From positions 77,362 to 141,361 of the forward strand of contig JAUJOY010000003.1 in the NCBI GenBank assembly GCA_030447385.1: a stretch of DNA of 64,000 nt, written 5' to 3'. The notes under the pieces were generated by a model. It was not told where the DNA came from. It worked only from the letters and a program-made list of their open reading frames with translations, and searched no databases. The DNA comes from Mycobacteriales bacterium. GTDB taxonomy: Bacteria > Actinomycetota > Actinomycetes > Mycobacteriales > SCTD01. Made by a program: the position numbers and the translations under genes. Of the stretch, positions 47,637 to 64,000 are shown piece after piece. How positions within the stretch are numbered: the stretch's first letter is position 1; each line of letters begins with the position of its first letter.

Positions 47637-49109
47637 ATGACCTCACCCCTGCATGGCGCCGCCCCGCCGGCGACCTCCCCCGCCTCGTCCGCCGACGCCG
47701 ACGTACGCCTCGATGACGACCTTCTCGAGTTCCACGAGATCGAGGGGGAGGGGTTCGAGCTCGAGGCCCGGCAGGGCCTGCGCCGGGTCGCGGGGATCCG
47801 CACCGACCTCGAGGACATCAGCGAGGTCGAGTACCGCGCGCTGCGCCTCGAGCGCGTCGTGCTCATGGGCGTCTACGCGTACGGCGACGCTGTCGGCGCG
47901 CAGAACTCGCTTCAGGAGCTGCAGGCGCTGGCGGAGACCGCGGGCTGCGAGGTGCTCGAGGGGCTGGCGCAGCGGCGGGAGAAGCCCGATCCGAAGAGCT
48001 ACGTCGGCTCGGGCAAGGCGAAGGAGCTGCGTGCGGCGGTGGTGGCCTCGGGCGCGGACACGGTCATCTGCGACGGCGAGCTGACGCCGGGCCAGCTGCG
48101 TGCGCTCGAGGAGATCGTCAAGGTCAAGGTCATCGACCGGACCTGGCTGATCCTCGACATCTTCGCGCAGCACGCCACGTCCCGGGAGGGCAAGGCACAG
48201 GTCGAGCTCGCCCAGATGACCTACATGCTGCCGCGGCTGCGCGGCTGGGGTGAGTCGCTGTCCCGGCAGGGCGGTGGCGCCGGTGGCTCCGGTTCCGGTG
48301 GTGTCGGGACGCGCGGACCCGGTGAGACGAAGATCGAGACCGACCGTCGCCGGATCCGGGCGCGCAAGGCCAAGCTCACCAGCGAGATCAAGCAGATGAA
48401 GACCGCGCGCGACACCAAGCGTCAGGAGCGGGTACGCGGGGGCGTCCCCTCTGTCGCCATCGCCGGCTACACCAACGCGGGCAAGAGCTCGCTGCTCAAC
48501 AGGCTGACCGGCGCGGGCGTGCTCGTCGAGAACGCGCTGTTCGCGACGCTCGACCCGACGGTGCGCCGTGCCGTGACACCCAGCGGTCGCGAGTTCACCC
48601 TCACCGACACCGTGGGCTTCGTGCGGATGCTGCCGCACCAGCTGATCGAGGCGTTCCGCTCGACGCTCGAGGAGGTCGCCGACGCGGACCTGATCCTGCA
48701 CGTCGTCGACGGCTCGCACCCGGACCCGGAGGGGCAGCTGGCCGCCGTGCGGGAGGTCGTCGCCGACCTCGACGCCCAGCGCATCCCGGAAGTCGTCGTG
48801 GTCAACAAGTGCGACCTGGCCGACCCGCTGGTGCTCGGCCGCCTGCAGCGGCGCGAAAAGCACGTCGTGCTCGTGTCCGCGCTGACCGGTGCGGGGCTCC
48901 CCGAGCTGCTTCAGGTGCTGGAGGACGAGGTCCCGCACCCCAACACGCTGGTACGCGTCGTGCTGCCGTACGCGGCGGGCGCCCTCGTGTCGCGGATCCA
49001 CTCCCAGGGTGAGGTGCTGTCCGAGGAGCACCGTGAGGAGGGCACGCACCTGGTGGCCCGCGTGGGTCCCCAGCTGGCCGCGGAGCTGGACGCTTACCTC
49101 GTCGCCTGA
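47637..49109 (+). CDS. hflX: GTPase HflX
   Basis: HflX N-domain YVGSGKAKEL and LILDIFAQHATSREGKAQVELAQ. G domain GYTNAGKSSLLN, DTVGF and NKCD. ATG at 47637 within the longer track ORF. Confidence 0.95.
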   Translation: MTSPLHGAAPPATSPASSADADVRLDDDLLEFHEIEGEGFELEARQGLRRVAGIRTDLEDISEVEYRALRLERVVLMGVYAYGDAVGAQNSLQELQALAETAGCEVLEGLAQRREKPDPKSYVGSGKAKELRAAVVASGADTVICDGELTPGQLRALEEIVKVKVIDRTWLILDIFAQHATSREGKAQVELAQMTYMLPRLRGWGESLSRQGGGAGGSGSGGVGTRGPGETKIETDRRRIRARKAKLTSEIKQMKTARDTKRQERVRGGVPSVAIAGYTNAGKSSLLNRLTGAGVLVENALFATLDPTVRRAVTPSGREFTLTDTVGFVRMLPHQLIEAFRSTLEEVADADLILHVVDGSHPDPEGQLAAVREVVADLDAQRIPEVVVVNKCDLADPLVLGRLQRREKHVVLVSALTGAGLPELLQVLEDEVPHPNTLVRVVLPYAAGALVSRIHSQGEVLSEEHREEGTHLVARVGPQLAAELDAYLVA

Positions 49110-49217
49110 GCGCGGCGTCGTTCGGGGTCGTCTCGTCAGCGGCGCGGGACACCCCTGCGAGCGAGGCCTTTCCATAGGCCCTCTAGCGACAGGGGCAGAT
49201 CTCGGTACCCTCCCGGC

Positions 49218-49766
49218 GTGGTGAAGCGGGTGCTCGGGGCAACGCTGGCACTCGCCGTCGTCCTGGCCGGGTGCACGTCGCCGGAGAAGGAGCCGACGGT
49301 GCTGCCGCCGGCCCCGTCGCCCTCGCCGACTGCGGTGCTTCTCTCGCCACCACCCGAGGTGGCTGCTGAGACTGCCGAGGGGGCAAGTGCGTTCGCGCGG
49401 TACTACATGGCTGTGCTTAGTCAGGCGTTTCAGACGGCTAATCCGGATCTGCTTGAGAAACTGAGCGACCCGGGCTGTGGTGGCTGCCGAAACTTCATAC
49501 GGGCTGTTGAGGGGGCACGAGACGCGCGCGAGGTCACGCGAGGTGGGGACGTCAACGTATTGTTCGTAGCGGCGCCTCCTGTGAGCAAGGGCGAGGTGAT
49601 CGTCGATCTGCGTTACGAGCGTTCTGCGGCAATGCTGTTCAACGCTTCTGGTGCCCTAGTCGGACAACTGCCGCCGGACAAGCCCTTGGATGCCCAGCTG
49701 CGGCTGATGCGTCGAGCAAACAGCTGGGTAGTCATGGGATTCCGTGCAGCACGTGTCGCGCCATGA
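49218..49766 (+). CDS. Lipoprotein, DUF6318-like (actinobacterial secreted protein with a CGGC motif)
   Basis: Signal peptide with lipobox VLAGCTSP and a Pro-rich linker, then GASAFARYYMAVLSQAFQTANPDLLEKLSDPGCGGCRNF. G+C is visibly lower than in the flanks. Confidence 0.55.
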   Translation: MVKRVLGATLALAVVLAGCTSPEKEPTVLPPAPSPSPTAVLLSPPPEVAAETAEGASAFARYYMAVLSQAFQTANPDLLEKLSDPGCGGCRNFIRAVEGARDAREVTRGGDVNVLFVAAPPVSKGEVIVDLRYERSAAMLFNASGALVGQLPPDKPLDAQLRLMRRANSWVVMGFRAARVAP

Positions 49767-50647
49767 GTCGGCTCTTGATCTTTATCATCTTGTTGTCGGG
49801 AACTGCGTCACACATGCCCGCCCTGGCCGTGGAGGTAGGTGCACCACCATGTGATCGCAGATCCTTTTCTACCTGCGCGCTCGCGTCCGGTGACGCCTTC
49901 ACTGTGGAGGGAAATGAGGCCAGCGGCACGAGACCGCCTCGCGACATCAGCAGCGGGCCACTGCGGTCAACCTCGCCGCTCCTGAACCAGTCTCGCCACG
50001 TCCCCACGTGCGCTGGCAATACGGTCGGCGGTGAAGATGCCCTCTGTGCGGAATCCGGCGAGACCTGCCCAGAGCCCGGCCAGGTCAGGTTCTGGGTCTT
50101 CCGCCGGACTGTCGACACGCGTGTCCCGAACGACGACCCGCCGTTCATCCGTGACACGACGCCGCCGTTCGTCTGCCTAGAGCCCGACGCACCTGAGCTG
50201 GACCCGCGCACGGCGATCCAGGCGATCGTGAACCGGGACTTCCAGCGGATCGTGGTGCTGAAAGGCGTACCGGAGGTGTCGCCGCGCCCGGACACGCTGG
50301 TGAGCGTCGACACCATCTTCACCACGTCGAGCCCGTCGAGCTACGCCATTCCGCTGACGCTGCTCGGTCGCTCGGTCGTGGTCACCGCGACCGCGTCCCG
50401 TTGGACCTGGCACTTCGGTGACGGCGCGACGGCGGGAACGTCCACTCCCGGGTCGAAGGGGCGGGTGACGCACAGGTACACGCAGTCCGGGACACGCAGC
50501 GCGTACGTCGTCATCGAGTGGACCGGGACCTTCCGCGTCGCCGGCGGTCCGGTCCAGCAGGTCGACGGGACAGCGACGACCACCGGCGACCCGGTGCAGG
50601 TCGGTGTGAAGCAGGCCCGGACCGAGCTGGTCGACCGACCCTCGTAG
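49763..50647 (+). CDS. Secreted protein with a C-terminal PKD-like domain
   Basis: ATGA overlap with the upstream gene. Hydrophobic N-terminus MSRLLIFIILLSGTASHMPALA. C-terminal WTWHFGDGATAGTSTPGSKGRVTHRYTQSGTRSAYVVIEWTG resembles the PKD signature (WxFGDG...H.Y...G.Y). The 5' half is the lowest-GC DNA in the window. Confidence 0.5.
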   Translation: MSRLLIFIILLSGTASHMPALAVEVGAPPCDRRSFSTCALASGDAFTVEGNEASGTRPPRDISSGPLRSTSPLLNQSRHVPTCAGNTVGGEDALCAESGETCPEPGQVRFWVFRRTVDTRVPNDDPPFIRDTTPPFVCLEPDAPELDPRTAIQAIVNRDFQRIVVLKGVPEVSPRPDTLVSVDTIFTTSSPSSYAIPLTLLGRSVVVTATASRWTWHFGDGATAGTSTPGSKGRVTHRYTQSGTRSAYVVIEWTGTFRVAGGPVQQVDGTATTTGDPVQVGVKQARTELVDRPS

Positions 50648-50656
50648 CGGGGTGGA

Positions 50657-51412
50657 TCAGACCTTTCGCAGCACCGTGACGACCCGTCCGAGGATGACCG
50701 CGCGCTCGCCGTCGATCGGGGCGTAGGCGTCGTTGTGCGGCATCAACCAGACCCGTCCGTCGCGACGCTTGTAGGTCTTCACGGTCGCCTCCCCATCGAT
50801 CATCGCGGCGACGATCTCGCCGTTGCTCGCCGTGGGCTGCTGGCGGACCACGACCCAATCACCGTCGGCGATGGCGGCGTCGACCATCGAGTCACCTACC
50901 ACCCTGAGCATGAACAGCGTGCCGCTGCCCACGAGCTCGCGCGGCAGCGGGAAGACGTCCTCCACGGCCTGCTCAGCGAGGATCGGCCCGCCGGCGGCGA
51001 TCCGGCCCAGAACCGGGACGTACGCGGGGGTCGGCCGCGCCGCACGCTCGGCGGCCTCGTCCTGCGCCTGGTCGGCTGCGGCGATAGCAGCAGCGGCGTC
51101 ACCCGGCAACCGTACGTCGACCGCCCGGGGCTTCGAGGGGTCCCGACGCAGGAACCCCTTCTTCTGCAGGGTGTCGAGCTGGTAGGAGACGCTGCTGGTG
51201 CTCGTCAGACCCACGGCCTGTCCGATCTCCCGGACGGTCGGCGGATAGCCCCGCCGCTCGACCGAGTCGCGGATGACCTCGAGCACCTTGCGCTGGCGGG
51301 GGGTGAGCCCCGACTCGTCGGCGGGACCGTCGGGAAGGTCCCGAACCACACCGGGATCGTCAGGGGAGCGAGAGCCGTCTGTGGAGGGAGAGCCGGTCCG
51401 GGGGCGCGCCAT
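50657..51412 (-). CDS. lexA: SOS repressor LexA
   Basis: w[47 protein letters not shown], cleavage site region [13 protein letters not shown], and S24 peptidase motifs VVGDSM and TVKTY. The ATG at 51412 has a GGAGG RBS. The track start, a GTG at 51478, is possible but less likely. Confidence 0.95.
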
Positions 51413-51481
51413 GGAAACCTCCGCTGCTCGGGGCCTTTGGCCCGGTGACGGAGAGGACGTTATCGCTTCCGAGGTCACAGA

Positions 51482-51497
51482 TCAAACACATGTTCGA
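51482..51497. promoter_or_regulatory. LexA operator (SOS box) in the lexA / LysM-gene divergent region
   Basis: TCAAACACATGTTCGA matches TCGAAC-N4-GTTCGA at 11 of 12 defined positions. Confidence 0.6.
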
Positions 51498-51513
51498 AGG
51501 TGTCCTGGATTTC

Positions 51514-51535
51514 TGTCGGACCGGCGAGGTACAAC
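51514..51535 (+). promoter_or_regulatory. Imperfect RecA-NDp-like promoter motif facing the LysM gene
   Basis: TGTCGGAC-CGGCGAGG-TACAAC has the TGTCG core and the exact 8-nt spacer, but the -10 hexamer ends in C rather than the consensus T. It lies 60 nt upstream of the ATG at 51595. Confidence 0.3.
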
Positions 51536-51552
51536 TTCGACCAGGCGTTCGA

Positions 51553-51568
51553 TCGAACGCGGGTTCGT
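51553..51568. promoter_or_regulatory. LexA operator (SOS box) in the lexA / LysM-gene divergent region
   Basis: TCGAACGCGGGTTCGT matches TCGAAC-N4-GTTCGA at 11 of 12 defined positions. Confidence 0.7.
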
Positions 51569-51594
51569 TCGACGAGGAGACGAAGGAGCCACTC

Positions 51595-51993
51595 ATGGCA
51601 ACCCAGATGAAGTCCAGGGCGACGTCCCGCCCGACCCGGAGGCCGGGTCCCCCCCGGTGCGACCGGGTGCCGCCGCCAAGCATGCCCTGCCAGGCTCCGT
51701 CCGTGCACCTGACGCGCCGCGGACGTGTCCTGCTTCTCGCCCTCCTGGTGGCTGTCCTGTTCGGCGCCTTCTCCTTGGGGCGGGCAGCACCGCAGGCAGC
51801 GTCGGCCGCGCCGTCGACTCCCGCGCTGGAGCAGATCACCGTCCAGCAGGGGGAGTCCTTGTGGACGGTGGCCCGCCGCATCGCGCCGGACAACGACCCG
51901 CGTGAGGTGATCGCCCAGATCCGCCGAATCAACGACCTGACCACCTGGCAGCTGCAGGCCGGTCAGCAGCTGCTGCTGCCTGTCGCGGGCTGA
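51595..51993 (+). CDS. LysM-domain membrane protein, ChiZ (Rv2719c)-like candidate SOS-induced division inhibitor
   Basis: Arg/Pro-rich N-terminus, a single TM (VLLLALLVAVLFGAFSL), and a C-terminal LysM domain (ITVQQGESLWTVARRIAPDNDPREVIAQIRRINDLTTWQLQAGQQLLLP). It is divergent from lexA, as in Mycobacterium. Confidence 0.7.
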   Translation: MATQMKSRATSRPTRRPGPPRCDRVPPPSMPCQAPSVHLTRRGRVLLLALLVAVLFGAFSLGRAAPQAASAAPSTPALEQITVQQGESLWTVARRIAPDNDPREVIAQIRRINDLTTWQLQAGQQLLLPVAG

Positions 51994-52110
51994 GCGCGCC
52001 ACCGTCTCGCCCTACAGCGCGAAAGGTGAAGATCAGGAGGAACGCATCCGGCAGTTCCGGCGTTATCTGCCCACGTCGGCGTTCTTCCGCCAGCCTCTCG
52101 AGGAGCCTCC

Positions 52111-53295
<1,185 letters not shown>

Positions 53296-53307
53296 CCCAC
53301 TGCCCGC

Positions 53308-53350
53308 CCGCGTCACCCGCTACTGCGCCAAGGCCTGGGGGGTGACGCGG
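53308..53350 (+). terminator. Hairpin downstream of the S8 peptidase gene (possible terminator)
   Basis: 11-bp inverted repeat, CCGCGTCACCC (53308-53318) with GGGTGACGCGG (53340-53350). The loop is 21 nt and there is no U-tract. Confidence 0.3.
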
Positions 53351-53511
53351 CCGGGCGTGCACCGCCTCCGTGCCTGATCCTGCGGCGAGGGCGAGCACCC
53401 TGAGCGCGGAGCGCACGCCACACGATCGGGTGCGGCGTCACTCCTCACCGCCCGCGACGCCCGGGGAACCACGTCTGCGCGCTGCTGGGCCCCGCATGCC
53501 AAGATCTCCCG

Positions 53512-55824
53512 ATGCCCTCCGTCGCCCCGAGCCCTGCGGGGGTACGCGCGGCCCTCGCCGGCTGCCGCGTCTTCCTGACCGGAGCCACCGGCTTCCTGGG
53601 GGAGGCGGTGCTGGAGCGTCTGCTCGTCGACCTGCCGGCCACGCGGGTCGTCCTCCTGGTGCGCGGAAAGGACGGTTTCGCGGCGGCGCAGCGCGTCGAG
53701 CAGCTGCTCGCGAAGCCCGCCTTCACCACGCTCCGCGAGCGCATCGGACCGGACGGCGCACCCGAGCTGCTCCGCGAGCGCATCGACGTGCTCGACGGCG
53801 ACCTGACCCACTGGCCCGCGCTCCCCGGCGACCTCGACGTGGTGGTGCACTGTGCCGGAGAGGTCTCCTTCGACCCGGCCATCGACGACGGGTTCGCCAC
53901 CAACGCCCTCGGCGTCGAGCGGCTGCTGCACGCCGTGGCGAGCAGCGGCTCGCGGCCCCACGTGGTGCACGTCTCCACCGCGTACGTCAACGGGATGGTC
54001 AAGGGCAGCGTCGCCGAAGGCCGGCTGCCCCATCAGGTCGACTGGCGGGTGGAGGCGGACGCGGCCACCCGGCGGCGCCGAGCGGTCGAGGATGCCAGCC
54101 GTGGTGCGGCGCAGCTGGCGAGCTTCCTGGGCCAGGCGCGCGAGGACCACGCCCGCGAGGGCCCGCAGGTGGTGAGTTCCGCGGCGGAGCGCGGCCGCCG
54201 GGCCTGGGTCGAGGAGCAGCTCGTGGCCGCCGGCCGCGAGCGGGCGCAGAGTCTGGGCTTCACCGACTGCTACACCTTCACCAAGGCGATGGGGGAGCGG
54301 GTCGTCGAGGAGCTGGCCGGCGACCTTCCGGTGACGGTCGTCCGGCCGTCGATCATCGAGAGCGCCCTCGAGAAGCCCTACCCGGGGTGGATCGAGGGCT
54401 ACAAGATGGCCGACCCGATCATCCTGGCGTACGGCCGCGGGGTCCTCCCCGACTTCCCTGGGGTGCCCGATGGGGTGGTCGACATCGTGCCGGTCGACCT
54501 CGTCGTCTCCGCGATCCTCACCGCGGCGGCCCACCCACCCGAGCCCGGCGGACGCCGCTACCTCCACCTGTGCACCGGCGCCCGCAACCCGCTGACGCTG
54601 GCCGCCCTGCACGGCAGCGTCCGCGAGCACTTCCGCCGCCACCCGCTGCAGGTCCGCGACCGCGGGACGATCGCCGTGCAGGCCTGGACCTTTCCCGGCT
54701 CGGCGCACCTCGAACGACGGCTGCGCGCCGGGGAGCGCCTGGTGGATGTCGCGGACAGCGTGCTGGGCGCTCTGCCGCGCAGCGACCGGGTGCGCAGCGC
54801 GGCCCTGGCGCTGGACCGCAGCCGGGCCCAGCTGGAGTTCCTGCGGCGCTACTTGGACCTGTTCGGGGTGTACGCCGCGGCCGAGGTGGTCTACCTCGAC
54901 GACGGGGTCGCCGAGCTGGAGGCGCTGCTGCCGGACGACGAGCGGGACCTGTTCGGCTTCGACCCGCGCCGCATCGACTGGCAGCACTACCTGAGCGAGG
55001 TGCACATCCCGAGCATCACCGGGCTGATCCGCACCATCACCGCCTCGCCGCGCGGTCCTCGAGACCGCGTCGACCCGGACCTGAGCCTCGAGGCCGACTC
55101 TGAGCACCACTCCTCCGTAGCCCCGCGCGACCAGGACCGCATCGTCGCCGTGTTCGACATGGACGGCACGCTGCTGCCCTCCAACGTCGTCGAGTCCTAC
55201 CTGCGGCTGCGCCTGGCGGGGCTGGCCCTGCCCGACCGGGCGCGCGAGATCGGCCTCGCCGCAAGGCAGTTCCCTGGCTGGGTGCTCACCGAGCGGAAGG
55301 ACCGCGGCACGTTCCTGCGCGAGATCTACCGCCAGTACGCAGGGGCGTCCCTTGAGGAGCTCGACGCGCTCGTGGACGACGAGGTCGGGCCGGACATGCT
55401 CGCCCGCCTCAGCCCGGCTGCCCTCCGGCAGGTCCGCCGGCACCGGGCCGCGGGCCACCGCACGGTGCTCATCACCGGCGCCATCCTGGCCCTCACCCGC
55501 CCGCTGGCGCCGCTGTTCGATGACGTCGCCGCCGCGGAGCTCGAGGTCGACCGGGAGGGACGGGCCACCGGGCGGCTCTCCTGCCCTCCGCCTGTGGGTG
55601 AGGCCCGGCCCGCGTGGCTGCGCCACTACGCCGCCCTGCACGACCTCGACCTGACCGCCTCGTACGCCTATGCCGACTCCGCCAGCGACCTGCCGCTGCT
55701 TCGGGCGGTGGGCCGGCCCGTCGCGGTCAACCCCGACGTCACGACGTTGCGCGCCGCCCGCGCCGCGCGATGGCCGGTGAAGGAGTGGCGCACCTCCGGC
55801 CGTCCCCTCAGCAGAGCCACCTGA
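53512..55824 (+). CDS. Fusion protein: N-terminal fatty acyl-CoA/ACP reductase-type SDR domain (NAD_binding_4-like) and C-terminal HAD-IB family hydrolase
   Basis: Rossmann motif FLTGATGFLGEAV, catalytic YTFTKAMGE (YxxxK) and VVRPSIIES, as in fatty acyl reductases. C-terminal HAD motif I AVFDMDGTLLPS, and motif IV region AYADSASDLPLL. Confidence 0.8.
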   Translation: MPSVAPSPAGVRAALAGCRVFLTGATGFLGEAVLERLLVDLPATRVVLLVRGKDGFAAAQRVEQLLAKPAFTTLRERIGPDGAPELLRERIDVLDGDLTHWPALPGDLDVVVHCAGEVSFDPAIDDGFATNALGVERLLHAVASSGSRPHVVHVSTAYVNGMVKGSVAEGRLPHQVDWRVEADAATRRRRAVEDASRGAAQLASFLGQAREDHAREGPQVVSSAAERGRRAWVEEQLVAAGRERAQSLGFTDCYTFTKAMGERVVEELAGDLPVTVVRPSIIESALEKPYPGWIEGYKMADPIILAYGRGVLPDFPGVPDGVVDIVPVDLVVSAILTAAAHPPEPGGRRYLHLCTGARNPLTLAALHGSVREHFRRHPLQVRDRGTIAVQAWTFPGSAHLERRLRAGERLVDVADSVLGALPRSDRVRSAALALDRSRAQLEFLRRYLDLFGVYAAAEVVYLDDGVAELEALLPDDERDLFGFDPRRIDWQHYLSEVHIPSITGLIRTITASPRGPRDRVDPDLSLEADSEHHSSVAPRDQDRIVAVFDMDGTLLPSNVVESYLRLRLAGLALPDRAREIGLAARQFPGWVLTERKDRGTFLREIYRQYAGASLEELDALVDDEVGPDMLARLSPAALRQVRRHRAAGHRTVLITGAILALTRPLAPLFDDVAAAELEVDREGRATGRLSCPPPVGEARPAWLRHYAALHDLDLTASYAYADSASDLPLLRAVGRPVAVNPDVTTLRAARAARWPVKEWRTSGRPLSRAT

Positions 55825-57044
55825 TGAGCGCCAGCACGATGCGGCGGGTGGAGGTCTACCGCTCTCTGCCCCGCTACGCCGCGACGCGGGTCCTGTCGAC
55901 GCGGCTGCCGGGGGTCAGCAGCACCTCGGCGGCCCCGCTGCGGCTCAGCCGCGGCCCGGGACCGGCACTGCCGGGGACGCGTTGGGGGAGGGTGCGTCCC
56001 CGGCTGTCCGGGATCTGCGGCTCGGACCTGTCGACGGTGCGGGGCACGTCCTCGCTGTACTTCTCCCCGCTCGTGTCACTGCCGTTCACCCCGGGGCACG
56101 AGATCGTCGGGGACCTGCTCGACGACGTGGACGACCTGCCGGCCGGCACCCGCGTCGTGGTCGACCCGCTGCTGACCTGCGTGCCCCGCGGCCTCGATCC
56201 CTGCGGTGCCTGCCGGGACGGTGCCCGCAGCCGCTGCGACCGGATCACGGTCGGCCACATCTCCCCGGGGCTGCAGACCGGCTTCTGCGCGGACACCGGG
56301 GGCGGCTGGAGTGACGGGCTCGTCGCCCACCGCAGCCAGCTGCACCCGGTTCCCGACGACCTGACCGACGAGCGCGCGGTGCTCGTGGAGCCGCTGGCGT
56401 GTGCGATCCACACCGCGCTGCGGCTGGCGCCGAAGGAGGGGGAGCACGTCCTGGTGGTGGGGGCCGGCGCGGTCGGGTTGTTCACCGTGCTCGCGCTGCG
56501 CGCGTTCACGCTCGCCGGCCGCATCACCGTCGTCGCCAAGCACCCCCGTCAGAAGGAGCTGGCCCGCCAGTTCGGGGCGACGGATCTGCTGGGTCCGGGT
56601 GAGGCGATGGCAGGCGTACGCCGCGCGACCCGCGCCATGCACGTCCAGCCCGAGCAGGGAGCGCCGTTCCTGCTCGGCGGCGTCGACGCGGCGATCGACT
56701 GCGTCGGCAGCAAGGGCTCGCTCGACACGGCGCTGCGGGCCACCCGGGCCGGTGGTCGGGTGCTGCTCAGCGCGATGCCGGCCGCCGGCGTCGACCTGTC
56801 GCCGGTGTGGTTCCGGGAGCTGACCGTCCTCGGGTCCTACGCCACCGGGGCTGAGCAGGTTCACGACGACGAGCCGCGCAGCTCGTTCGCCCTGGCGATG
56901 GAGTTGGCCTGCGAGGCACCACTGGACGACGTGGCGCAGACTGGCTACCCCCTGGAACGATGGCGCGAGGCGCTCGAGCACGCAGGGGACGCGGGCCGGC
57001 TCGGGACGGTGAAGGTGCACTTCGATCTGAGGGAGACGTCGTGA
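55824..57044 (+). CDS. Zinc-dependent medium-chain alcohol/polyol dehydrogenase
   Basis: TGATG overlap with the upstream gene. Motifs GICGSDL and PGHEIVG, a structural-zinc Cys cluster (CVPRGLDPCGACRDGARSRC), and Rossmann VVGAGAVGL. Confidence 0.85.
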   Translation: MSASTMRRVEVYRSLPRYAATRVLSTRLPGVSSTSAAPLRLSRGPGPALPGTRWGRVRPRLSGICGSDLSTVRGTSSLYFSPLVSLPFTPGHEIVGDLLDDVDDLPAGTRVVVDPLLTCVPRGLDPCGACRDGARSRCDRITVGHISPGLQTGFCADTGGGWSDGLVAHRSQLHPVPDDLTDERAVLVEPLACAIHTALRLAPKEGEHVLVVGAGAVGLFTVLALRAFTLAGRITVVAKHPRQKELARQFGATDLLGPGEAMAGVRRATRAMHVQPEQGAPFLLGGVDAAIDCVGSKGSLDTALRATRAGGRVLLSAMPAAGVDLSPVWFRELTVLGSYATGAEQVHDDEPRSSFALAMELACEAPLDDVAQTGYPLERWREALEHAGDAGRLGTVKVHFDLRETS

Positions 57045-58618
57045 GCCGGCCAGGGTTCGTGCTGGAGGTCGACGAGCGCACCCCGCCGCTGCTCGTGCAC
57101 GAGGGGGAGCGGCTGCGCCTCGAGACCTTCCCGCTGGGCACCCGGGTCGTCTACCCGCCGGAGTCGCTGCCGGGGCTGCCGGACGTGGACGCGGCGATCC
57201 GGCAGGCGCTGCTGAACCCGCTTGGCACCGACCCGCTCCCCGAGCTCCTCTTCCGCGGTATGCGGCTCACGATCGCCTTCGACGACATCTCCTTGCCCCT
57301 GCCGCAGATGCAGCTCCCCGATGTGCGGCAGCGAATCGTGGAGGCCGTCCTGACGATGGCCGCCGAGGCGGGTGTAGACGACGTGAAGCTGGTGGCGGCG
57401 AATGCGCTGCACCGCCGCATGACACCTGCGGAGCTGCGACGGTGCCTGGGGGAGAGAGTCTTTCGTTCGTTCTTCCCGGATTCCTTGACCAACCACGATG
57501 CCGAGGACGGGCAGAACCTGCTGCACCTGGGCACCACCGACCGGGGCGAGGACGTCGAGATCAACCGTCGCGCGGCGGAGTCCGACCTGCTGGTCTACGT
57601 CAACATCAACCTGGTCGCGATGGACGGCGGGCACAAGTCCGTGCCGATCGGCCTGGCGTCCTACAAGAGCTTGAAGCACCACCACAACACCCACACGATG
57701 CTGCACAGCAAGAGCTACATGGACCCGCCGCGATCGGCGCTGCACGGCTCCGCGGCGCGCATGGGTGCGCTGGTCGCGGACACGGTGAAGGTCTTCCACA
57801 TCGAGACGACGCTCAACAACGACGCGTTCCCGTCGCCGTACCGCTTCCTCACCAAGCGCGAGTGGGAGTGGTCGGGCAAGGAGCAGGCCACGATGCTGGC
57901 CGTCAAGCGGGGACTCGACCTCGCGCCGGCGAAGGTGCGCCATCGCATCTTCCGCTCCATGGAGGCGCCGTACGGCGTGACGTCCGTGCAGGCCGGCGCG
58001 ACCGATCAGGTGCACGAGCGCACGCTGGCCGCCGTGCACCGCCAGCAGCTGGTCGAGGTGGACGGGCAGAGCGACGTGCTCGTGGTCGGGGTGCCCTACG
58101 TCGGCCCGTACAACGTCAACAGCGTGCTCAACCCGATCCTCGCGATGTGCCTCGGGATGGGCTACTTCTTCAACATGTACCGCGGTCGCCCGCTGGTGCG
58201 GCCCGGCGGTGCGATGATCCTGTATCACCCGGTGCCGTGGCAGTTCTCGCAGCTGCACCATCCGAGCTACCTCGACTTCTTCGAGGAGGTCCTCGCCGAG
58301 TCCACGGACCCGGCGACGATCGAGAAGAAGTTCGAGCAGCAGTACGCGACCGACCCCTGGTACATCCACCTTTACCGGACGTCGTACGCCTACCACGGCG
58401 TCCACCCCTTCTACATGTGGTACTGGGGTGCGCATGCGATGGACCACCTCGACGACGTGATCTGGGTCGGTGCCGACCCGCGCACCGTCGGGCGGATGGG
58501 CTTCCGGTCCGCCTCGACGATGCAGGACGCGCTGCAGATGGCGAGCGGCTCGGTCGGTCGCTCGCCGTCGATCACCTACCTGCACTCGCCGCCGTTCGCC
58601 CTCGCCGACGTGCGGTGA
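57041..58618 (+). CDS. LarA-like protein (lactate racemase N-terminal domain / DUF2088 family)
   Basis: GTGA overlap with the upstream gene. About 525 aa. LTIAFDDISLPLP...VKLVAANALHRRMT...NINLVAMDGGHKS resembles the LarA-N family as I recall it. The assignment needs HMM confirmation. Confidence 0.6.
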   Translation: MSRPGFVLEVDERTPPLLVHEGERLRLETFPLGTRVVYPPESLPGLPDVDAAIRQALLNPLGTDPLPELLFRGMRLTIAFDDISLPLPQMQLPDVRQRIVEAVLTMAAEAGVDDVKLVAANALHRRMTPAELRRCLGERVFRSFFPDSLTNHDAEDGQNLLHLGTTDRGEDVEINRRAAESDLLVYVNINLVAMDGGHKSVPIGLASYKSLKHHHNTHTMLHSKSYMDPPRSALHGSAARMGALVADTVKVFHIETTLNNDAFPSPYRFLTKREWEWSGKEQATMLAVKRGLDLAPAKVRHRIFRSMEAPYGVTSVQAGATDQVHERTLAAVHRQQLVEVDGQSDVLVVGVPYVGPYNVNSVLNPILAMCLGMGYFFNMYRGRPLVRPGGAMILYHPVPWQFSQLHHPSYLDFFEEVLAESTDPATIEKKFEQQYATDPWYIHLYRTSYAYHGVHPFYMWYWGAHAMDHLDDVIWVGADPRTVGRMGFRSASTMQDALQMASGSVGRSPSITYLHSPPFALADVR

Positions 58619-59529
58619 GCGGCGACCTGCGGACCGCGGCGCGTGGCTGGCGCTGGGGGCGTACGCCGTTGGTGCCCGCCGGCGCCGAGCCGCACCGCCT
58701 GCCCGTCGAGGACCGGGTGTTCCCCACCGACTGGGCCCGCTCCCCCGCGGCGGTGGCGGTACGCGGCGCGGTGCAGCGGTACGGGCTCCGGCCGCTCGTG
58801 CACTCGCAGCTGCGCGTGCAGGTCGAGGGGCTCGAGGCGCTGCGCGACCTGCGGGGTCCCGTCGTGTTCGTCTCCGACCACACGTCCCACCTCGACGCGC
58901 CGCTGGTGCTGACCACGCTGCCCGAGCGGTGGCGCCGCCGCACGGCTGTGGCGGCCGCGGCCGACTACTTCTTCGACACCTGGCCCCGAGCCGTGGGCTC
59001 GACGATGGCCTTCTCCACCTTCCCGATGGAGCGTCGCGCCGGCGGCGCCTCGACAGCCGCGGAGCTGCTGTTCGAGGGCTGGAGCCTGCTGGTGTTCCCG
59101 GAGGGTACGCGGTCGCGGGACGGCTGGGCGGCGCCGTACAAGCGTGGCGCGGCCTACCTGGCGCTGAGCGCCGGGGTGCCGCTCGTGCCGATCGCGGTAC
59201 GCGGCTCCTTCCGGGCCATGCCCCGCGGGCGGGCCTGGCCGGTCGGGGGCCGGCCGGCTGTGCGCGTGCGCTACGGGACGGCGGTGCATCCCCTTCCTGG
59301 TGAGGCCGCGGCTGCGCTCACCACCCGCCTTCGCGCGCAGGTGTCGCGGCTTCGCGACGAGGACGCCACCGACTGGTACGCCTCCATGCGCCGCTCGGCG
59401 GACGGCAGCACGCCGTCGGCCGCCGGACCGGAGGCGGCCCGCTGGCGGCGGGTGTGGGCCGCCACCGAGCCGGTCGCGCCGGTGCGGGCGACCGAGCCGC
59501 GGGCGGCCTGGCGCAAGCGCCCCCGATAG
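58615..59529 (+). CDS. PlsC/AGPAT-family (lysophospholipid) acyltransferase
   Basis: GTGA overlap with the upstream gene. Motif [10 protein letters not shown] (HX4D), motif [13 protein letters not shown], motif [11 protein letters not shown]. Confidence 0.8.
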
Positions 59530-59783
59530 CAGAGGTCCTCGCCCCCGGGCAGGCACCCACGACGGCAGGGCCGGAGCCGGGCTCTGGCGCCCCGGACCTG
59601 TCGTACCCCGGCCGCACGCTGGAGGGGTGAACCTCCACCACGCGGACTGTCGGCACCCCCGGCCGCAGAGCCCGGCTCGCGACCCGCTGCGCCCGCGAGA
59701 GCAACACGCCGTACGACCTGCGGCTTCGCGTCTTCTCCCCGCGTGTCGCTTGCCTCAGGGGCTGTGCGGAGCTACTGTCCCCG

Positions 59784-59799
59784 ACACAACATCTAGGGA
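59784..59799. promoter_or_regulatory. Candidate NrdR box upstream of nrdR-nrdJ
   Basis: ACACAACATCTAGGGA matches the published NrdR-box consensus acaCwAtATaTwGtgt at 12 of 16 positions by my count. It lies 86 nt upstream of the nrdR start. I could not find a convincing second box. Confidence 0.3.
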
Positions 59800-59884
59800 T
59801 TACACGGTTGTAGTTCTCCACATGCTGTGGGCAACCGGATCCACAGGTGTGGACACGCCGCCGCGACGAGAGGGGATCCAGACC

Positions 59885-60403
59885 GTGCGCTGCCCGTTCT
59901 GCCGGCACCCCGACAGCCGCGTCGTCGACAGCCGCGAGACGAGCGAGGGCGACGCCATCCGGCGCCGCCGCTCGTGCCCGGAGTGCGGCCGGCGCTTCAC
60001 CACGGTCGAGGAGATGTCCCTGGCCGTGGTGAAGCGCAGCGGCGTGCACGAGCCGTTCAGCCGCGCGAAGATCGTCAGCGGAGTGCGCAAGGCCTGCCAG
60101 GGACGGCCGGTGAGCGAGGACGCGCTGGCGCTGCTCGCGGCCCGTGTCGAGGACGCCATCCGCGCCGGCGGCAACCCCGAGGTCCCCGCCGACGAGGTGG
60201 GACTGGCGATCCTCGAACCCCTCCGCGAGCTCGACGTCGTGGCCTACCTGCGGTTCGCGAGCGTCTACCGCGCCTTCGAGTCGCTCGCCGACTTCGAGGC
60301 CGAGATCACCGCCCTTCGGGTTAGCGCACCCGGCGGCAAGCACGACCCCCGCCCGCCGGATCGACAGGCCACCCCGCCGAACCGGCTCAGCCCCGCGCGC
60401 TGA
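59885..60403 (+). CDS. nrdR: Transcriptional repressor NrdR
   Basis: From the GTG at 59885: [42 protein letters not shown] (zinc ribbon), followed by an ATP-cone ([24 protein letters not shown]...). Confidence 0.95.
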
Positions 60404-60494
60404 GTCAACCCCGGACGGCACTCCCGCCCCACCCACGAGCGAATGCGGCAGACGCCGCGGTTGTTGACCACAGAGACGGCAGAAGGAGCACGGC

Positions 60495-63278
60495 ATGACG
60501 GAGACGGTCACCGGCACATCGCGCCAGCACAGGCGCCTGCCGATCGAGCGGGTCTACACGACGCCCGGCGTGCACCCCTACGCGGAGGTGACGTGGCAGC
60601 AGCGCGACATCGTCATGACCAACTGGCGCGACGGCACGGTCAACTTCGAGCAGCGCGGCGTGGAGTTCCCCGACTTCTGGTCGGTCAACGCCGCCAACAT
60701 CGTCACGACGAAGTACTTCCGCGGCGCCGTCGGGACGCCCGAGCGCGAGTTCAGCCTGCGCCAGCTGATCGACCGGGTGGTGCTGAAGTACACCGAGGCC
60801 GGGCGCGAGCACGGCTACTTCGCGAGCGAGGACGACGCGACGCTGTTCGAGCACGAGCTGACCTGGATGCTGCTGCACCAGGTGTTCAGCTTCAACTCGC
60901 CCGTCTGGTTCAACGTGGGAACGTCCGCGCCACAGCAGGTTGCCGCGTGCTTCATCCTCGCCGTGGACGACCAGATGGACTCGATTCTGAACTGGTACCG
61001 CGAGGAGGGCCTGATCTTCAAGGGCGGCTCGGGAGCCGGTCTCAACCTCTCCCGTATCCGCTCCTCGAAGGAGCTGCTCAGCAGCGGCGGCACCGCGAGC
61101 GGTCCGGTGTCGTTCATGCGGGGTGCGGATGCGTCGGCCGGCACCATCAAGAGCGGTGGCGCGACCCGTCGGGCCGCGAAGATGGTCGTGCTCGACGTGG
61201 ACCACCCCGACATCGAGGAGTTCATCGAGACGAAGGCGCGGGAGGAGGACAAGATCCGCGCACTGCGTGACGCCGGTTTCGACATGGACCTCGGTGGCAG
61301 GGACATCGTCAGCGTCCAGTACCAGAACGCCAACAACTCGGTACGCGTCAGCGACGAGTTCATGCGCGCAGTCGAGGACGGCAAGCCGTTCGGGCTGCGG
61401 GGCCGGCTCGACGGCCAGGTGATCGAGACGGTGGAGGCTCGGGCGCTGTGGCGCAAGCTCGCGCAGGCCGCTTGGGAGTGCGCCGACCCCGGCATCCAGT
61501 ACGACGACACGATCAACGACTGGCACACCAACCCCGAGACCGGCCGGATCACGGCGAGCAACCCCTGCTCCGAGTACATGAGCCTCGACAACTCCTCGTG
61601 CAACCTCGCGTCGCTCAACCTCATGGCGTTCCTGCGTCCGGACGGCACGTTCGAGGCGCACAAGTTCGCCCAGGCCGTCGAGGTGATCATCACCGCGATG
61701 GACATCTCGATCTGCTTCGCCGACTTTCCGACCGAGCCGATCGCCCAGACCACCCGTGCCTACCGCCAGCTCGGCATCGGCTACGCCAACCTCGGTGCGC
61801 TGCTGATGGCGACCGGTCACGCATACGACTCCGACGGCGGCCGGGCGCTGGCCGGAGCGATCACGAGCTTGATGACGGCGACCGCGTACCGGCGCTCGGC
61901 GGAGCTCGCCGGGATGGTCGGGCCGTACGACGGCTACGCGCGCAACGCCGACGCCCACAAGCGGGTGATCCGCAAGCACGCCGCGGCGAACGACTCCGTA
62001 CGCGCGGTGGGCGCGGACGACGGGCGGATCCTGCACGAGGCCACCCGTGCCTGGCAGGAGTGCCTCGAGTTCGGCGAGCGCAACGGCTACCGCAACGCGC
62101 AGGCCAGCGTCATCGCGCCGACCGGCACCATCGGCCTGATGATGGACTGCGACACCACAGGCCTCGAGCCCGATCTGGCGCTCGTGAAGTTCAAGAAGCT
62201 GGTCGGCGGCTCGTCCATGCAGATCGTCAACGGCACCGTCTCGCGTGCCCTGCGGGCTCTGGGCTACCAGGAGGAGTCGGTCGAGGCGATCGTCGAGCAC
62301 ATCGCCGACAAGGGCAACGTCGTCGACGCGCCAGGGCTGAAGCCGGAGCACTACTCGGTCTTCGACTGCGCCATGGGGGAGCGGTCCATCTCCCCGATGG
62401 GCCACGTGAAGATGATGGCGGCCATCCAGCCGTTCGTCTCGGGGGCCCTGTCCAAGACCGTCAACCTGCCGGCCGAGGCGAGCGTCGAGGACGTCGAGAA
62501 GGTCTACTTCCAGGGCTGGAAGATGGGACTGAAGGCGCTGGCGATCTACCGCAACAACTCCAAGGTCGGCCAGCCCCTCACGGACAACAAGCAGAAGGCG
62601 CAGACGCTGGACGAGCTCGTGGCCGCCCAGCCGATTCGCCGGCGACTGCCGAAGAAGCGCCGCTCGCAGACGATCTCGTTCTCGGTCGCGGGCGCTGAGG
62701 GTTACATGACCTCCGGCGAGTACGACGACGGCAACGTCGGCGAGGTCTTCATCAAGATGAGCAAGCAGGGCTCGACCCTCGCCGGGGTGATGGATGCCTT
62801 CTCGGTCAGCATCTCGATCGGCCTGCAGTACGGCGTACCGCTCGAGGCCTTCGTCTCGAAGTTCACCAACATGCGGTTCGACCCGGCCGGCATGACCGAC
62901 GACGCCGACATCCGCATCGCCCAGTCGGTGATGGACTACCTGTTCCGCCGCCTCGCCCTGGACTACCTGCCGTACGAGAAGCGGGCGGACCTCGGGATCT
63001 TCTCGGCGGAGGAGCGGGCAGCCAAGCTGTCGGAACCGGCTCTGGCCGCCGCCGACGAGGTGGACGTGGAAGGCCTGGCGCAGTCGGTGCCGGTCGTCGC
63101 CACTCCGCGGGCCGTCCAGCCGGCGCCGCCCAAGGTCGGCTCCTCGACCGAGCTGCTCGAGTCGCAGCAGGGCACGGCCGCGGACGCTCCGCTCTGCATG
63201 ACCTGCGGGGTCAAGATGCGGCCGGCCGGGTCCTGCTACGTGTGCGAGAGCTGCGGGAGCACCAGCGGGTGCAGCTGA
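60495..63278 (+). CDS. nrdJ: Vitamin B12-dependent (class II) ribonucleotide reductase
   Basis: 927 aa with TKYFRG, ACFILAVDD, GGSGAGLNLSRIR, GGATRRAAKM, SNPCSEY...CNLASLNL, and a C-terminal Cys-rich tail CMTCGVKMRPAGSCYVCESCGS. The nrdR-nrdJ arrangement matches that of Streptomyces. Confidence 0.95.
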   Translation: MTETVTGTSRQHRRLPIERVYTTPGVHPYAEVTWQQRDIVMTNWRDGTVNFEQRGVEFPDFWSVNAANIVTTKYFRGAVGTPEREFSLRQLIDRVVLKYTEAGREHGYFASEDDATLFEHELTWMLLHQVFSFNSPVWFNVGTSAPQQVAACFILAVDDQMDSILNWYREEGLIFKGGSGAGLNLSRIRSSKELLSSGGTASGPVSFMRGADASAGTIKSGGATRRAAKMVVLDVDHPDIEEFIETKAREEDKIRALRDAGFDMDLGGRDIVSVQYQNANNSVRVSDEFMRAVEDGKPFGLRGRLDGQVIETVEARALWRKLAQAAWECADPGIQYDDTINDWHTNPETGRITASNPCSEYMSLDNSSCNLASLNLMAFLRPDGTFEAHKFAQAVEVIITAMDISICFADFPTEPIAQTTRAYRQLGIGYANLGALLMATGHAYDSDGGRALAGAITSLMTATAYRRSAELAGMVGPYDGYARNADAHKRVIRKHAAANDSVRAVGADDGRILHEATRAWQECLEFGERNGYRNAQASVIAPTGTIGLMMDCDTTGLEPDLALVKFKKLVGGSSMQIVNGTVSRALRALGYQEESVEAIVEHIADKGNVVDAPGLKPEHYSVFDCAMGERSISPMGHVKMMAAIQPFVSGALSKTVNLPAEASVEDVEKVYFQGWKMGLKALAIYRNNSKVGQPLTDNKQKAQTLDELVAAQPIRRRLPKKRRSQTISFSVAGAEGYMTSGEYDDGNVGEVFIKMSKQGSTLAGVMDAFSVSISIGLQYGVPLEAFVSKFTNMRFDPAGMTDDADIRIAQSVMDYLFRRLALDYLPYEKRADLGIFSAEERAAKLSEPALAAADEVDVEGLAQSVPVVATPRAVQPAPPKVGSSTELLESQQGTAADAPLCMTCGVKMRPAGSCYVCESCGSTSGCS

Positions 63279-63294
63279 GCACGGAGTGCTGACC

Positions 63295-63324
63295 GGCCGG
63301 GCGTCGCGAGCGCGACGCCCGGCC
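63295..63324. terminator. Strong GC hairpin between convergent nrdJ and a small reverse-strand ORF (possible bidirectional terminator)
   Basis: Perfect 14-bp inverted repeat, GGCCGGGCGTCGCG (63295-63308) with CGCGACGCCCGGCC (63311-63324). It begins 17 nt after the nrdJ stop. Confidence 0.45.
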
Positions 63325-63330
63325 CAGAGC

Positions 63331-63393
63331 TCACTTGCTGTCGTCCTTCTTGGTGTCCTTCGGTGCTGGTTCGCAGCCGCACTCCTCGCACAT
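63331..63393 (-). CDS. Candidate 20-aa Cys-rich small protein
   Basis: Reverse-strand GGAGAGGAGG, then 6 nt, then the ATG at 63393. It encodes MCEECGCEPAPKDTKKDDSK and a stop. G/C occupies the third codon position in most codons. Absent from the ORF track because it is too short. Divergent from the ArsR-type gene. Confidence 0.35.
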   Translation of the reverse strand: MCEECGCEPAPKDTKKDDSK

Positions 63394-63492
63394 GTCCGTC
63401 CTCCTCTCCCGGGTTGTGCCAACGACTGTTGTTGTTACCCCGTCACCGGGATTGCGTCAACAGGTGTTGTCGAAAGCCTGTACGGTGGCGTC

Positions 63493-64000
63493 ATGGCGCT
63501 CGAGCAGGACATCGAGACGCTGGGCCTGTTCACCGAGCCGCAGCGCCTTCGGTTGTTCGAGCAGGTCCAGGCTGCGCGGACGTGCACGGTGAACGAGCTG
63601 GCCGCCGCGCTGGGGATCGGCCGGAGCCTGGTCACCTTCCACCTGGGCAAGCTGATCGAGGCGGGGTTCGTCGAGGTGGCCGCACCGGAGCGCGCCACGG
63701 GAGGCCGGGGACGGCCCGCGGCGCGCTACCGCGTCACCGGTCGTGAGACGGCCGTGACCGTCCCCCACCGTCGCTACGACCTGCTCGCCGGCATCCTGCT
63801 CGACAGCGTCGCGGAGCACCGACCCGGCGAGAGCGCACAGGCGAGCGGGCTGCGCGCCGCCCGCCGCCGCGGCACAGAGCTCGGACACCGGTTCCGGGAG
63901 AAGCGGGACGTGCGCACCAACGCAGGGCGGCTCGCGCGCGTGGAGCGGCTGCTGGCGGCTCTGGGCTACGCCCCTTGCCGGCGGGGCGACGAGGTCGTCG
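63493..64000 (+). CDS. ArsR/SmtB-like winged-helix transcriptional regulator; 3' end runs off the window
   Basis: From the ATG at 63493: MALEQDIETLGLFTEPQRLRLFEQVQAARTCTVNELAAALGIGRSLVTFHLGKLIEAGFVEV..., the typical ArsR-family wHTH pattern. The frame is still open at 64000, so it is not in the ORF track. Confidence 0.65.
   Translation, partial: MALEQDIETLGLFTEPQRLRLFEQVQAARTCTVNELAAALGIGRSLVTFHLGKLIEAGFVEVAAPERATGGRGRPAARYRVTGRETAVTVPHRRYDLLAGILLDSVAEHRPGESAQASGLRAARRRGTELGHRFREKRDVRTNAGRLARVERLLAALGYAPCRRGDEVV

Follow-up and report, generated by a model that had tools for sequence, protein, structure and literature searches.

In the current study, we characterized a cassette of four genes, here called g1 to g4, in a stretch of 64,000 nucleotides from a Mycobacteriales bacterium (contig JAUJOY010000003.1 of assembly GCA_030447385.1, positions 77,362 to 141,361); this whole stretch is referred to as the window. 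The four genes form one operon, and by homology of the encoded proteins the cassette is an actinobacterial, split and rearranged counterpart of elbB-elbE from the ether-lipid (elb) operon of Myxococcus xanthus. We consider it fairly probable that the operon, as an elb counterpart, makes 1-O-alkyl-glycerol-3-phosphate and then 1-O-alkyl-2-acyl-glycerol lipids, and that it does so without an AGPS flavoenzyme. The features concerned are as follows.

g1, 53512-55824, + strand, 770 amino acids: fatty acyl-CoA/ACP (acyl carrier protein) reductase (residues ~10-503) fused to a HAD-IB phosphatase (residues ~546-760)
g2, 55824-57044, + strand, 406 amino acids: zinc-dependent medium-chain dehydrogenase of the polyol/secondary-alcohol type
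g3, 57041-58618, + strand, 525 amino acids: LarAH14-group LarA homologue that has one catalytic His, an orthologue-level relative of ElbC
g4, 58615-59529, + strand, 304 amino acids: PlsC/AGPAT-family acyltransferase
Presumed operon promoter region, 53296-53511, + strand: intergenic stretch of 216 base pairs before g1, assigned by position

The original prediction described four plus-strand genes with overlapping stop and start codons, and both the coordinates and the junction sequences proved to be exactly as claimed: TGATG at 55822-55826 (g1/g2), GTGA at 57041-57044 (g2/g3) and GTGA at 58615-58618 (g3/g4), with overlaps of 1 or 4 bases. A Shine-Dalgarno-like GGGAG (57031-57035) lies ahead of the g3 start, the stretch at 53296-53511 is the sole sizeable gap ahead of the four overlapping genes, and identical gene calls for all four are found in the public assembly GCA_030446855.1 (contig JAUJMM010000003.1). 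Relatives of g3 occur in at least 563 stretches, taken from one genome per species (GTDB species representatives), and the locus comparisons reported here were made on the best 80. Wherever the contig was long enough, the order reductase-HAD, zinc dehydrogenase, LarA homologue (LarAH) and acyltransferase was kept in 80 of 80 loci, and the arrangement is therefore far from one of chance. Co-occurrence of the genes across Actinomycetota is complete in this sample: a match to g2 was present in 78 of the loci, and in the two exceptions the contig ends within or before the gene. The 80 loci come from Nocardioides, Kribbella, Frankia, Actinomadura, Actinoallomurus, Micromonospora, Phytohabitans, Streptomyces, Pseudonocardiales, Jiangellaceae and many metagenome-assembled genomes (MAGs), so that the cassette spans at least eight actinobacterial lineages.

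The relationship to M. xanthus is most evident in g3. MXAN_1529 is included in LarAH group 15 of the dataset of Desguin et al. (2020; PMC7583248). Its gene lies between a HAD gene of 221 codons and a gene whose product of 1470 residues has NAD_binding_4, Sterile, AMP-binding, PP-binding and Acyltransferase domains, and two epimerase-family genes flank these three; because this is the layout of the elbA-E operon, MXAN_1529 is ElbC. In BLASTP comparisons, g3 matched ElbC over its full length with 47% identity (E ~0). Residues 10-502 of g1 matched residues 8-539 of ElbD (29% identity, 2e-48), residues 546-760 of g1 matched residues 6-221 of ElbB (34% identity, 4e-30), and residues 56-224 of g4 matched residues 1239-1407 of ElbD (33% identity, 2e-22), while g2 had no match among the elb proteins. 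Hence, four of the five cassette domains are homologous to the elb operon, with linked homologues of ElbB (HAD) and ElbC (LarA-like) accompanied by the reductase and acyltransferase domains of ElbD. The likeness to myxobacterial ether-lipid logic that had been pointed out in the original prediction rests on this real homology to ElbB, ElbC and ElbD. As in the elb operon (MIBiG BGC0000871), the HAD, LarA-like, reductase and acyltransferase homologues are tightly linked and co-directional. In contrast, the cassette reductase is fused to the HAD domain, whereas that of the elb operon is fused to the acyltransferase (ElbD). The cassette also carries a zinc medium-chain dehydrogenase where elb has short-chain (epimerase-family) reductases, and it is without the adenylation domain and carrier protein that are both present in ElbD. 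Finally, its hosts are Actinomycetota rather than M. xanthus. According to the account of Lorenzen (2014) given in a 2022 review (PMC9131029), alkyl and vinyl ether lipids depend genetically on the elb operon, and disruption of elbD strongly lowers both; the review describes ElbC as "a protein of unknown function".

A search with ElbC yielded 80 metagenome loci. ElbB was matched in 61, mostly immediately upstream of ElbC, the ElbD reductase domain in 48 of them and ElbE in 35. Since several long loci have an ElbB-ElbC pair but no ElbD-like gene within 10 kb downstream (L099, L102, L114 and L116 among the loci with such pairs), the most constant unit is that of the HAD and LarA-like genes. Clustering of the neighbors revealed no further conserved partner in the elb-type loci. 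Three loci (L160, L163 and L165) are intermediate in makeup: ElbB, ElbC and an ElbE-like gene are accompanied by a reductase that stands alone, lacking adenylation, carrier and acyltransferase domains, and a PlsY-like gene is encoded close by on the other strand.

Assignment of g3 to the LarA family was flagged as the riskiest call of the original prediction, but in hidden Markov model searches all four domain assignments held. The protein matches Lar_N (Pfam, 2e-42) and scores 910.8 bits, against a cut-off of 740, with NCBIfam NF052592 ("NPN-dependent hydroxyacid isomerase, LarAH14/15/16 family"), the alignment running from residue 6 to 525 of g3 and from position 1 to 520 of the 520-position model. 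Its AlphaFold model (mean predicted local distance difference test, pLDDT, 93.3) has PDB entry 9q3k as its best match (template-modeling, TM, scores 0.77/0.84), and the single-His enzymes 9q3k and 9q3j together fit it best. Both LarA-fold domains align to 9q2u, giving g3 the Lar_N domain and the two-domain fold of the superfamily, and canonical racemases fit the model less well (query-normalized TM, TMq, 0.55-0.65). In LarA, Lys184 is the covalent tether of the cofactor, His200 is a nickel ligand, Asp72 is a further cofactor anchor, His108 and His174 are catalytic, and Arg75 binds both the cofactor phosphate and the substrate carboxylate. We aligned 164 homologues, 80 of them actinobacterial and 84 from elb-type and Rubrobacter loci. 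Residues D82, H124, K199 and H215 of g3, which correspond to D72, H108, K184 and H200 of LarA, were invariant in all 164. At the position of His174, however, Asn occurred in 147, Thr or Ser in 17 and His in none (N190 in g3), and the position of Arg75 was Leu, Ile, Val or Met throughout (L85 in g3). Thus, g3 retains the cofactor anchors and lacks both the second catalytic histidine and the arginine, and the loss of these two residues speaks for a substrate other than a carboxylate and a reaction other than racemization. Epimerization of a hydroxyl, as originally suggested, is an unlikely reaction for g3 because there is no second catalytic His.

Proteins of the g3 kind from Frankia, Kribbella and Rubrobacter were classified as "LarAH group 14" by Desguin et al. 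(2020; PMC7583248), whose Dataset S2 gives the group D72, H108, K184 and H200 without R75, H174 and K298, and who suggested that single-His groups catalyze another hydride-mediated reaction. A structural paper of 2025 (PMC12611868) restates that groups 14 and 15 are without His174, and presents the structures of two enzymes of group 17 that have one catalytic His. These two, LarA_Sp and LarA_Bw (9q2u, 9q3k, 9q3j), share with g3 the Lys tether, the nickel-ligand His, the Asp, one catalytic His and an Asn at the His174 position. They differ from it in having Lys where g3 has Leu at the Arg75 position, in an identity of only 19-22%, and in being encoded among glycolytic genes rather than lipid genes. 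For these closest solved structures, a link to triose and sugar phosphates has been drawn. Within the cassette, g3 encodes the most constrained protein, with a median identity of 71%, compared to 50% for the reductase, 56% for the HAD domain, 58% for the dehydrogenase and 53% for the acyltransferase. Some Frankia and Microlunatus genomes carry second, divergent copies beside acyltransferase and HAD genes; the copies are listed in group 16 of Dataset S2 (FRAAL3757, Francci3_2278, MLP_28440; PMC7583248). Gly or Ala replaces the cofactor-tethering Lys in these copies, two of the three also have Asn for the catalytic His, and they are probably inactive or repurposed paralogues.

Unbiased clustering of the open reading frames flanking the cassette in the 80 genome loci returned LarE, LarB and LarC as the top three families (NCBIfam scores of 275 bits for LarE, 247 bits for LarB, and 163 and 99 bits for the two domains of LarC). 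The genes larB, larC and larE directly adjoin the cassette in 18-19 of the 80 loci (L011, L012, L019, L033, L034, L038, L050, L053, L055-L058, L060, L063, L064, L067, L069, L074 and L079), in Actinomadura, Micromonospora, Pseudonocardiales and other lineages. At least four arrangements were seen: co-directional and downstream of the cassette; larB-larC upstream and co-directional; larE upstream with larB-larC divergent; and downstream but convergent. Such varied orders and orientations suggest a repeated or ancient linkage. Because larB, larC and larE adjoin the cassette in related loci, which is strong contextual evidence, g3 probably uses the nickel-pincer cofactor.

The remaining three proteins carry the domains and all the motifs that had been named for them. 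For g1, Pfam matches to NAD_binding_4 (3e-50) and HAD PF12710 (3e-33) were accompanied by GATGFLG at residue 24, YTFTK at 254, DMDGT at 549 and DSASD at 722. The first half therefore has the Rossmann GxxGxxG and YxxxK of a fatty acyl-CoA reductase, with a weak C-terminal Sterile match that falls under its cut-off (26.8 bits), and residues 10-503 match the fatty acyl-CoA reductase of PDB 7eoz at 2e-51. The second half has the DxDxT nucleophile and distal acidic motif of a HAD-IB phosphatase, passes TIGR01490 marginally (99.2 bits, cut-off 98.3) and matches PDB 3fvv, an uncharacterized HAD protein. For g2, ADH_N (5e-14) and ADH_zinc_N (2e-16) were found together with GICGSD, GHE and four cysteines spaced C-x7-C-x2-C-x7-C, that is, both the catalytic Cys and His and the structural zinc ligands of a zinc medium-chain dehydrogenase. 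No NCBIfam equivalog model scored above its cut-off with g2. Its nearest solved relatives are ketose reductase and butanediol, sorbitol, L-idonate and galactitol-1-phosphate 5-dehydrogenases, and it resembles reductases of polyol or polyol-phosphate ketones, not of fatty aldehydes. The g4 protein has a PF01553 Acyltransferase domain (2.5e-22) with the PlsC/AGPAT motifs HTSHLD (HX4D) at residue 89 and FPEGTR at 161, its nearest solved relative being PlsC of Thermotoga maritima (5kym, 9.5e-13). Its TIGR00530 score (53.7) is short of the cut-off of 102.95, so the acceptor is not fixed by family match. In a hydropathy scan, neither g3 nor g4 showed a clear membrane-spanning segment.

A natural variant of the cassette exists in Rubrobacter radiotolerans (CP007514), also of the Actinomycetota, where plsY (L084 5841-6452), reductase-HAD, zinc dehydrogenase and LarAH genes are consecutive. 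The fusion, the dehydrogenase and the LarAH14-type protein occur in the same order as in the window. However, an acyl-phosphate:glycerol-3-phosphate acyltransferase of the PlsY type is encoded upstream, in contrast to the downstream PlsC-type g4 of the window, and no PlsC-type gene follows the R. radiotolerans LarAH. PlsY acylates the sn-1 position of glycerol-3-phosphate, and its replacement of the PlsC-type gene suggests a role for the acyltransferase in supplying or processing a glycerol-3-phosphate intermediate. The abstract of a 2023 study by Sinninghe Damste and co-workers reportedly mentions a putative elb-like operon for 1-O-alkyl glycerol phosphate, and that operon is presumably the R. 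radiotolerans cluster described here. Mixed ether/ester lipids reportedly predominate in the order Rubrobacterales (Sinninghe Damste 2023, as cited in PMC11181052 and PMC11150832).

Taken together, these findings allow a pathway to be proposed, although we infer the product and every individual reaction. The reductase domain of g1 would convert an acyl thioester to a fatty aldehyde or alcohol. The nickel-pincer nucleotide tethered to the lysine of g3 would then borrow a hydride from the C2 hydroxyl of a glycerol-phosphate moiety, enabling formation of the sn-1 ether bond. Two versions are conceivable for an enzyme that has one acid/base residue and lacks the carboxylate-binding Arg. In one, the hydride would be returned to the aldehyde-derived carbon of a hemiacetal to give alkyl-dihydroxyacetone phosphate (alkyl-DHAP); in the other, 1-acyl-glycerol-3-phosphate would be transiently oxidized in situ, undergo acyl/alkyl exchange and be reduced back. 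The resulting 2-keto intermediate would be reduced by g2, taking the place of the ElbE short-chain reductase, after which g4 would acylate the glycerol backbone and the HAD domain of g1 would remove the phosphate. A HAD-type phosphatase domain, that of ACAD10, acts on 1-O-alkyl-2-acetyl-glycerol-3-phosphate (PMC13596139). The eukaryotic/peroxisomal pathway (FAR1, GNPAT, AGPS, acyl/alkyl-DHAP reductase and a phosphatase) shares the activity types of the cassette, namely acyl reduction, glycerone/glycerol-phosphate acylation, keto reduction and dephosphorylation. However, the cassette lacks the AGPS flavoenzyme and has a nickel-pincer LarA homologue in the remaining slot, so the parallel is one of functional analogy, not homology. 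Since g3 is the sole component without an assigned job, and all other activity types except that of AGPS are supplied, it is the candidate for the ether-forming step. We propose tentatively, and with more doubt than confidence, that g3 (LarAH14, equivalent to ElbC) forms the bond of the AGPS-independent aerobic bacterial pathway by a "borrowing-hydrogen" etherification of a fatty aldehyde or alcohol with glycerol phosphate, in which the nickel-pincer cofactor would serve as an internal hydride shuttle. In 11 of the 80 loci, among them L013, L016, L021, L024, L027, L032, L035, L071 and L080 from Nocardioides and related MAGs, AMP-binding genes resembling those for acyl-CoA synthetases are located at a distance of one to several kb. 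These genes could supply the activation step that ElbD performs through its own adenylation domain.

Several observations weigh against ether-lipid synthesis by the cassette. We know of no report of ether lipids from Frankia, Kribbella, Nocardioides, Micromonospora or Streptomyces. BLASTP gave no match in the cassette to the adenylation and carrier domains of ElbD or to the short-chain reductase ElbE. Likewise, no ACP, ElbA or ElbE gene was found in the 80 related loci, where a lone weak ElbE match (L009) lies inside the reductase gene. The larB, larC and larE genes were not found by tblastn within the 64-kb window, nor within 10 kb of the 80 elb-type metagenome loci, and consequently the cofactor-gene linkage is limited to actinobacterial loci. 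Purified Frankia LarAH14 supplied with the cofactor was inactive in all seven 2-hydroxy-acid reactions assayed (PMC7583248). As for M. xanthus, the gene disruptions recounted in PMC9131029 cover elbA, elbB, elbD and elbE, but not elbC.

A wax-ester pathway, a classical 2-hydroxy-acid racemase and inversion at glycerol C2 were all considered, and were ranked below synthesis of an ether lipid. The first would have the cassette make a reduced, ester-only lipid, such as acylated fatty alcohols (storage lipids of the wax or diol type) or modified phosphatidic acid, with the LarA-like protein catalyzing a side reaction unrelated to an ether bond. Wax-ester synthesis follows the same logic of reductase plus acyltransferase, and g1 resembles alcohol-forming fatty acyl-CoA reductases; moreover, ether lipids are not known from the carrier genera, and elbC is not among the elb genes whose disruption has been described. 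On the other hand, PlsC-type enzymes acylate glycerol phosphates and not fatty alcohols. HAD and LarAH form the most constant elb-type pair, with ElbB beside ElbC in 61 of 80 metagenome loci, and the same cassette is present in Rubrobacter, which is rich in ether lipids. We therefore regard an ester-only product as unlikely, though still deserving attention. Second, g3 might be a conventional nickel-pincer racemase or epimerase of 2-hydroxy acids (2-hydroxy fatty acids, glycerate or phosphoglycerate) that supplies a chiral building block. This would accord with its NCBIfam family name of hydroxyacid isomerase and with the fact that characterized members of the LarA superfamily all invert C2 of 2-hydroxy acids. 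It is nonetheless improbable to our minds, given that the second catalytic His was never present among the 164 homologues and the Arg75 position was always hydrophobic, that the Frankia protein was inactive as described above, and that Desguin et al. (PMC7583248) favor another hydride-mediated reaction for single-His groups. More doubtful still is inversion of the glycerol C2 of a lyso-lipid, from the sn-glycerol-3-phosphate type to the sn-glycerol-1-phosphate type, for the sake of an unusual backbone chirality: it could be accommodated by hidden-redox chemistry at a secondary alcohol and the context is one of glycerolipid genes, but the established LarA mechanism needs an acid/base residue on both faces of the substrate and g3 has one His. 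Finally, that the four genes are adjacent by chance or not co-expressed, with incidental overlaps, scarcely merits consideration, for although no promoter or terminator was located computationally, there are three overlapping junctions, an order kept in 80 of 80 loci and a homologous linkage in another phylum.

The association of the cassette genes is itself already on record, because Table S1 of PMC7583248 lists COG0204, COG0560 and COG1063 (88% each) and COG3320 (50%) as neighbors of LarAH group 14, although the main text does not discuss it. Regarding precedents, the association was tabulated in 2020, the myxobacterial relative was genetically tied to ether lipids in 2014, and the Rubrobacter version was apparently noted in 2023. 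Recognition of ElbC as a LarA-family protein, and probably a nickel-pincer enzyme, was not found in the searchable literature. There, no paper joined "nickel-pincer" with "ether lipid", elbC appeared only in the 2022 review, lipid papers were without LarA, and LarA papers, like a 2026 nickel-enzyme paper, were without lipids; groups 14 and 15 are listed as of "unknown function" in the LarA literature. How the alkyl ether bond is formed by the ElbD route in aerobic bacteria has been a standing question since 2014, and ElbC and g3, viewed as one single-histidine nickel-pincer family, offer a concrete and testable candidate for the missing step. Synthesis of ether lipids by the cassette would predict such lipids in several hundred actinobacterial species, judging from the at least 563 stretches, and would bear on the sources of environmental alkylglycerol biomarkers. 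If g3 and ElbC do form the ether bond, soil Actinomycetota, Myxococcota and Acidobacteriota would need nickel for the synthesis of alkyl ether lipids, and the capacity to produce ether lipids would extend to many actinomycetes from which none are known.

In the window, the operon is preceded by hflX, lexA (- strand), a LysM gene and an S8 protease gene, and followed by nrdR and a class II ribonucleotide reductase gene. The original prediction regarded the block as an accessory insertion in a conserved backbone, a reading that is supported in part. In favor of this, a position between the LysM gene and nrdR was seen in none of the 80 other loci. Neither lexA nor nrdR was found near the cassette in any of them, and the cassette therefore sits at differing chromosomal places by lineage. 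The signs of insertion, by contrast, were wanting: the GC content at third codon positions (GC3) of the cassette (0.92-0.94) equals that of its flanks, the window holds no transfer RNA (tRNA) genes, no mobility genes marking an insertion were found, and a search for flanking direct repeats around the cassette gave only short GC-rich chance matches. There is thus no indication of recent transfer. Overall GC falls to 0.67-0.68 over 57000-58500 (g3) while GC3 holds at 0.94, a dip due to the amino-acid composition of a highly conserved protein, not to foreign origin. Approximately 10 loci, including Kribbella (L026 5647-6456 and L030 13168-13938), have the cassette between HisA/PriA-like and HisF-like genes, and in Rubrobacter (L084 1167-4100) hisF, hisI and trpE are found a few kb upstream of it. 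This histidine-gene neighborhood may be an old chromosomal position, unlike the lexA-nrdR position in the window.

A scan of 53000-60600 returned no sigma-70-like site and one terminator-like hairpin, which lies inside g4 and is at chance level, and Rfam (E <= 0.1) had zero matches over 49000-64000. A LexA-box search found none ahead of the operon; the sites are confined to the intergenic stretch from which lexA and the LysM gene diverge, where three LexA/SOS-box-like sites (TCGAAC-N4-GTTCGA, one mismatch each) are located at 51482-51568. A second S8 protease-like sequence, at 34645-35433 on the - strand, shares 33% identity with the S8 gene at 52111-53295. Within g1, a perfect direct repeat of 17 nucleotides (53730-53746 and 53769-53785) encodes LRERI twice, 13 codons apart, and is probably a small internal duplication without known consequence.

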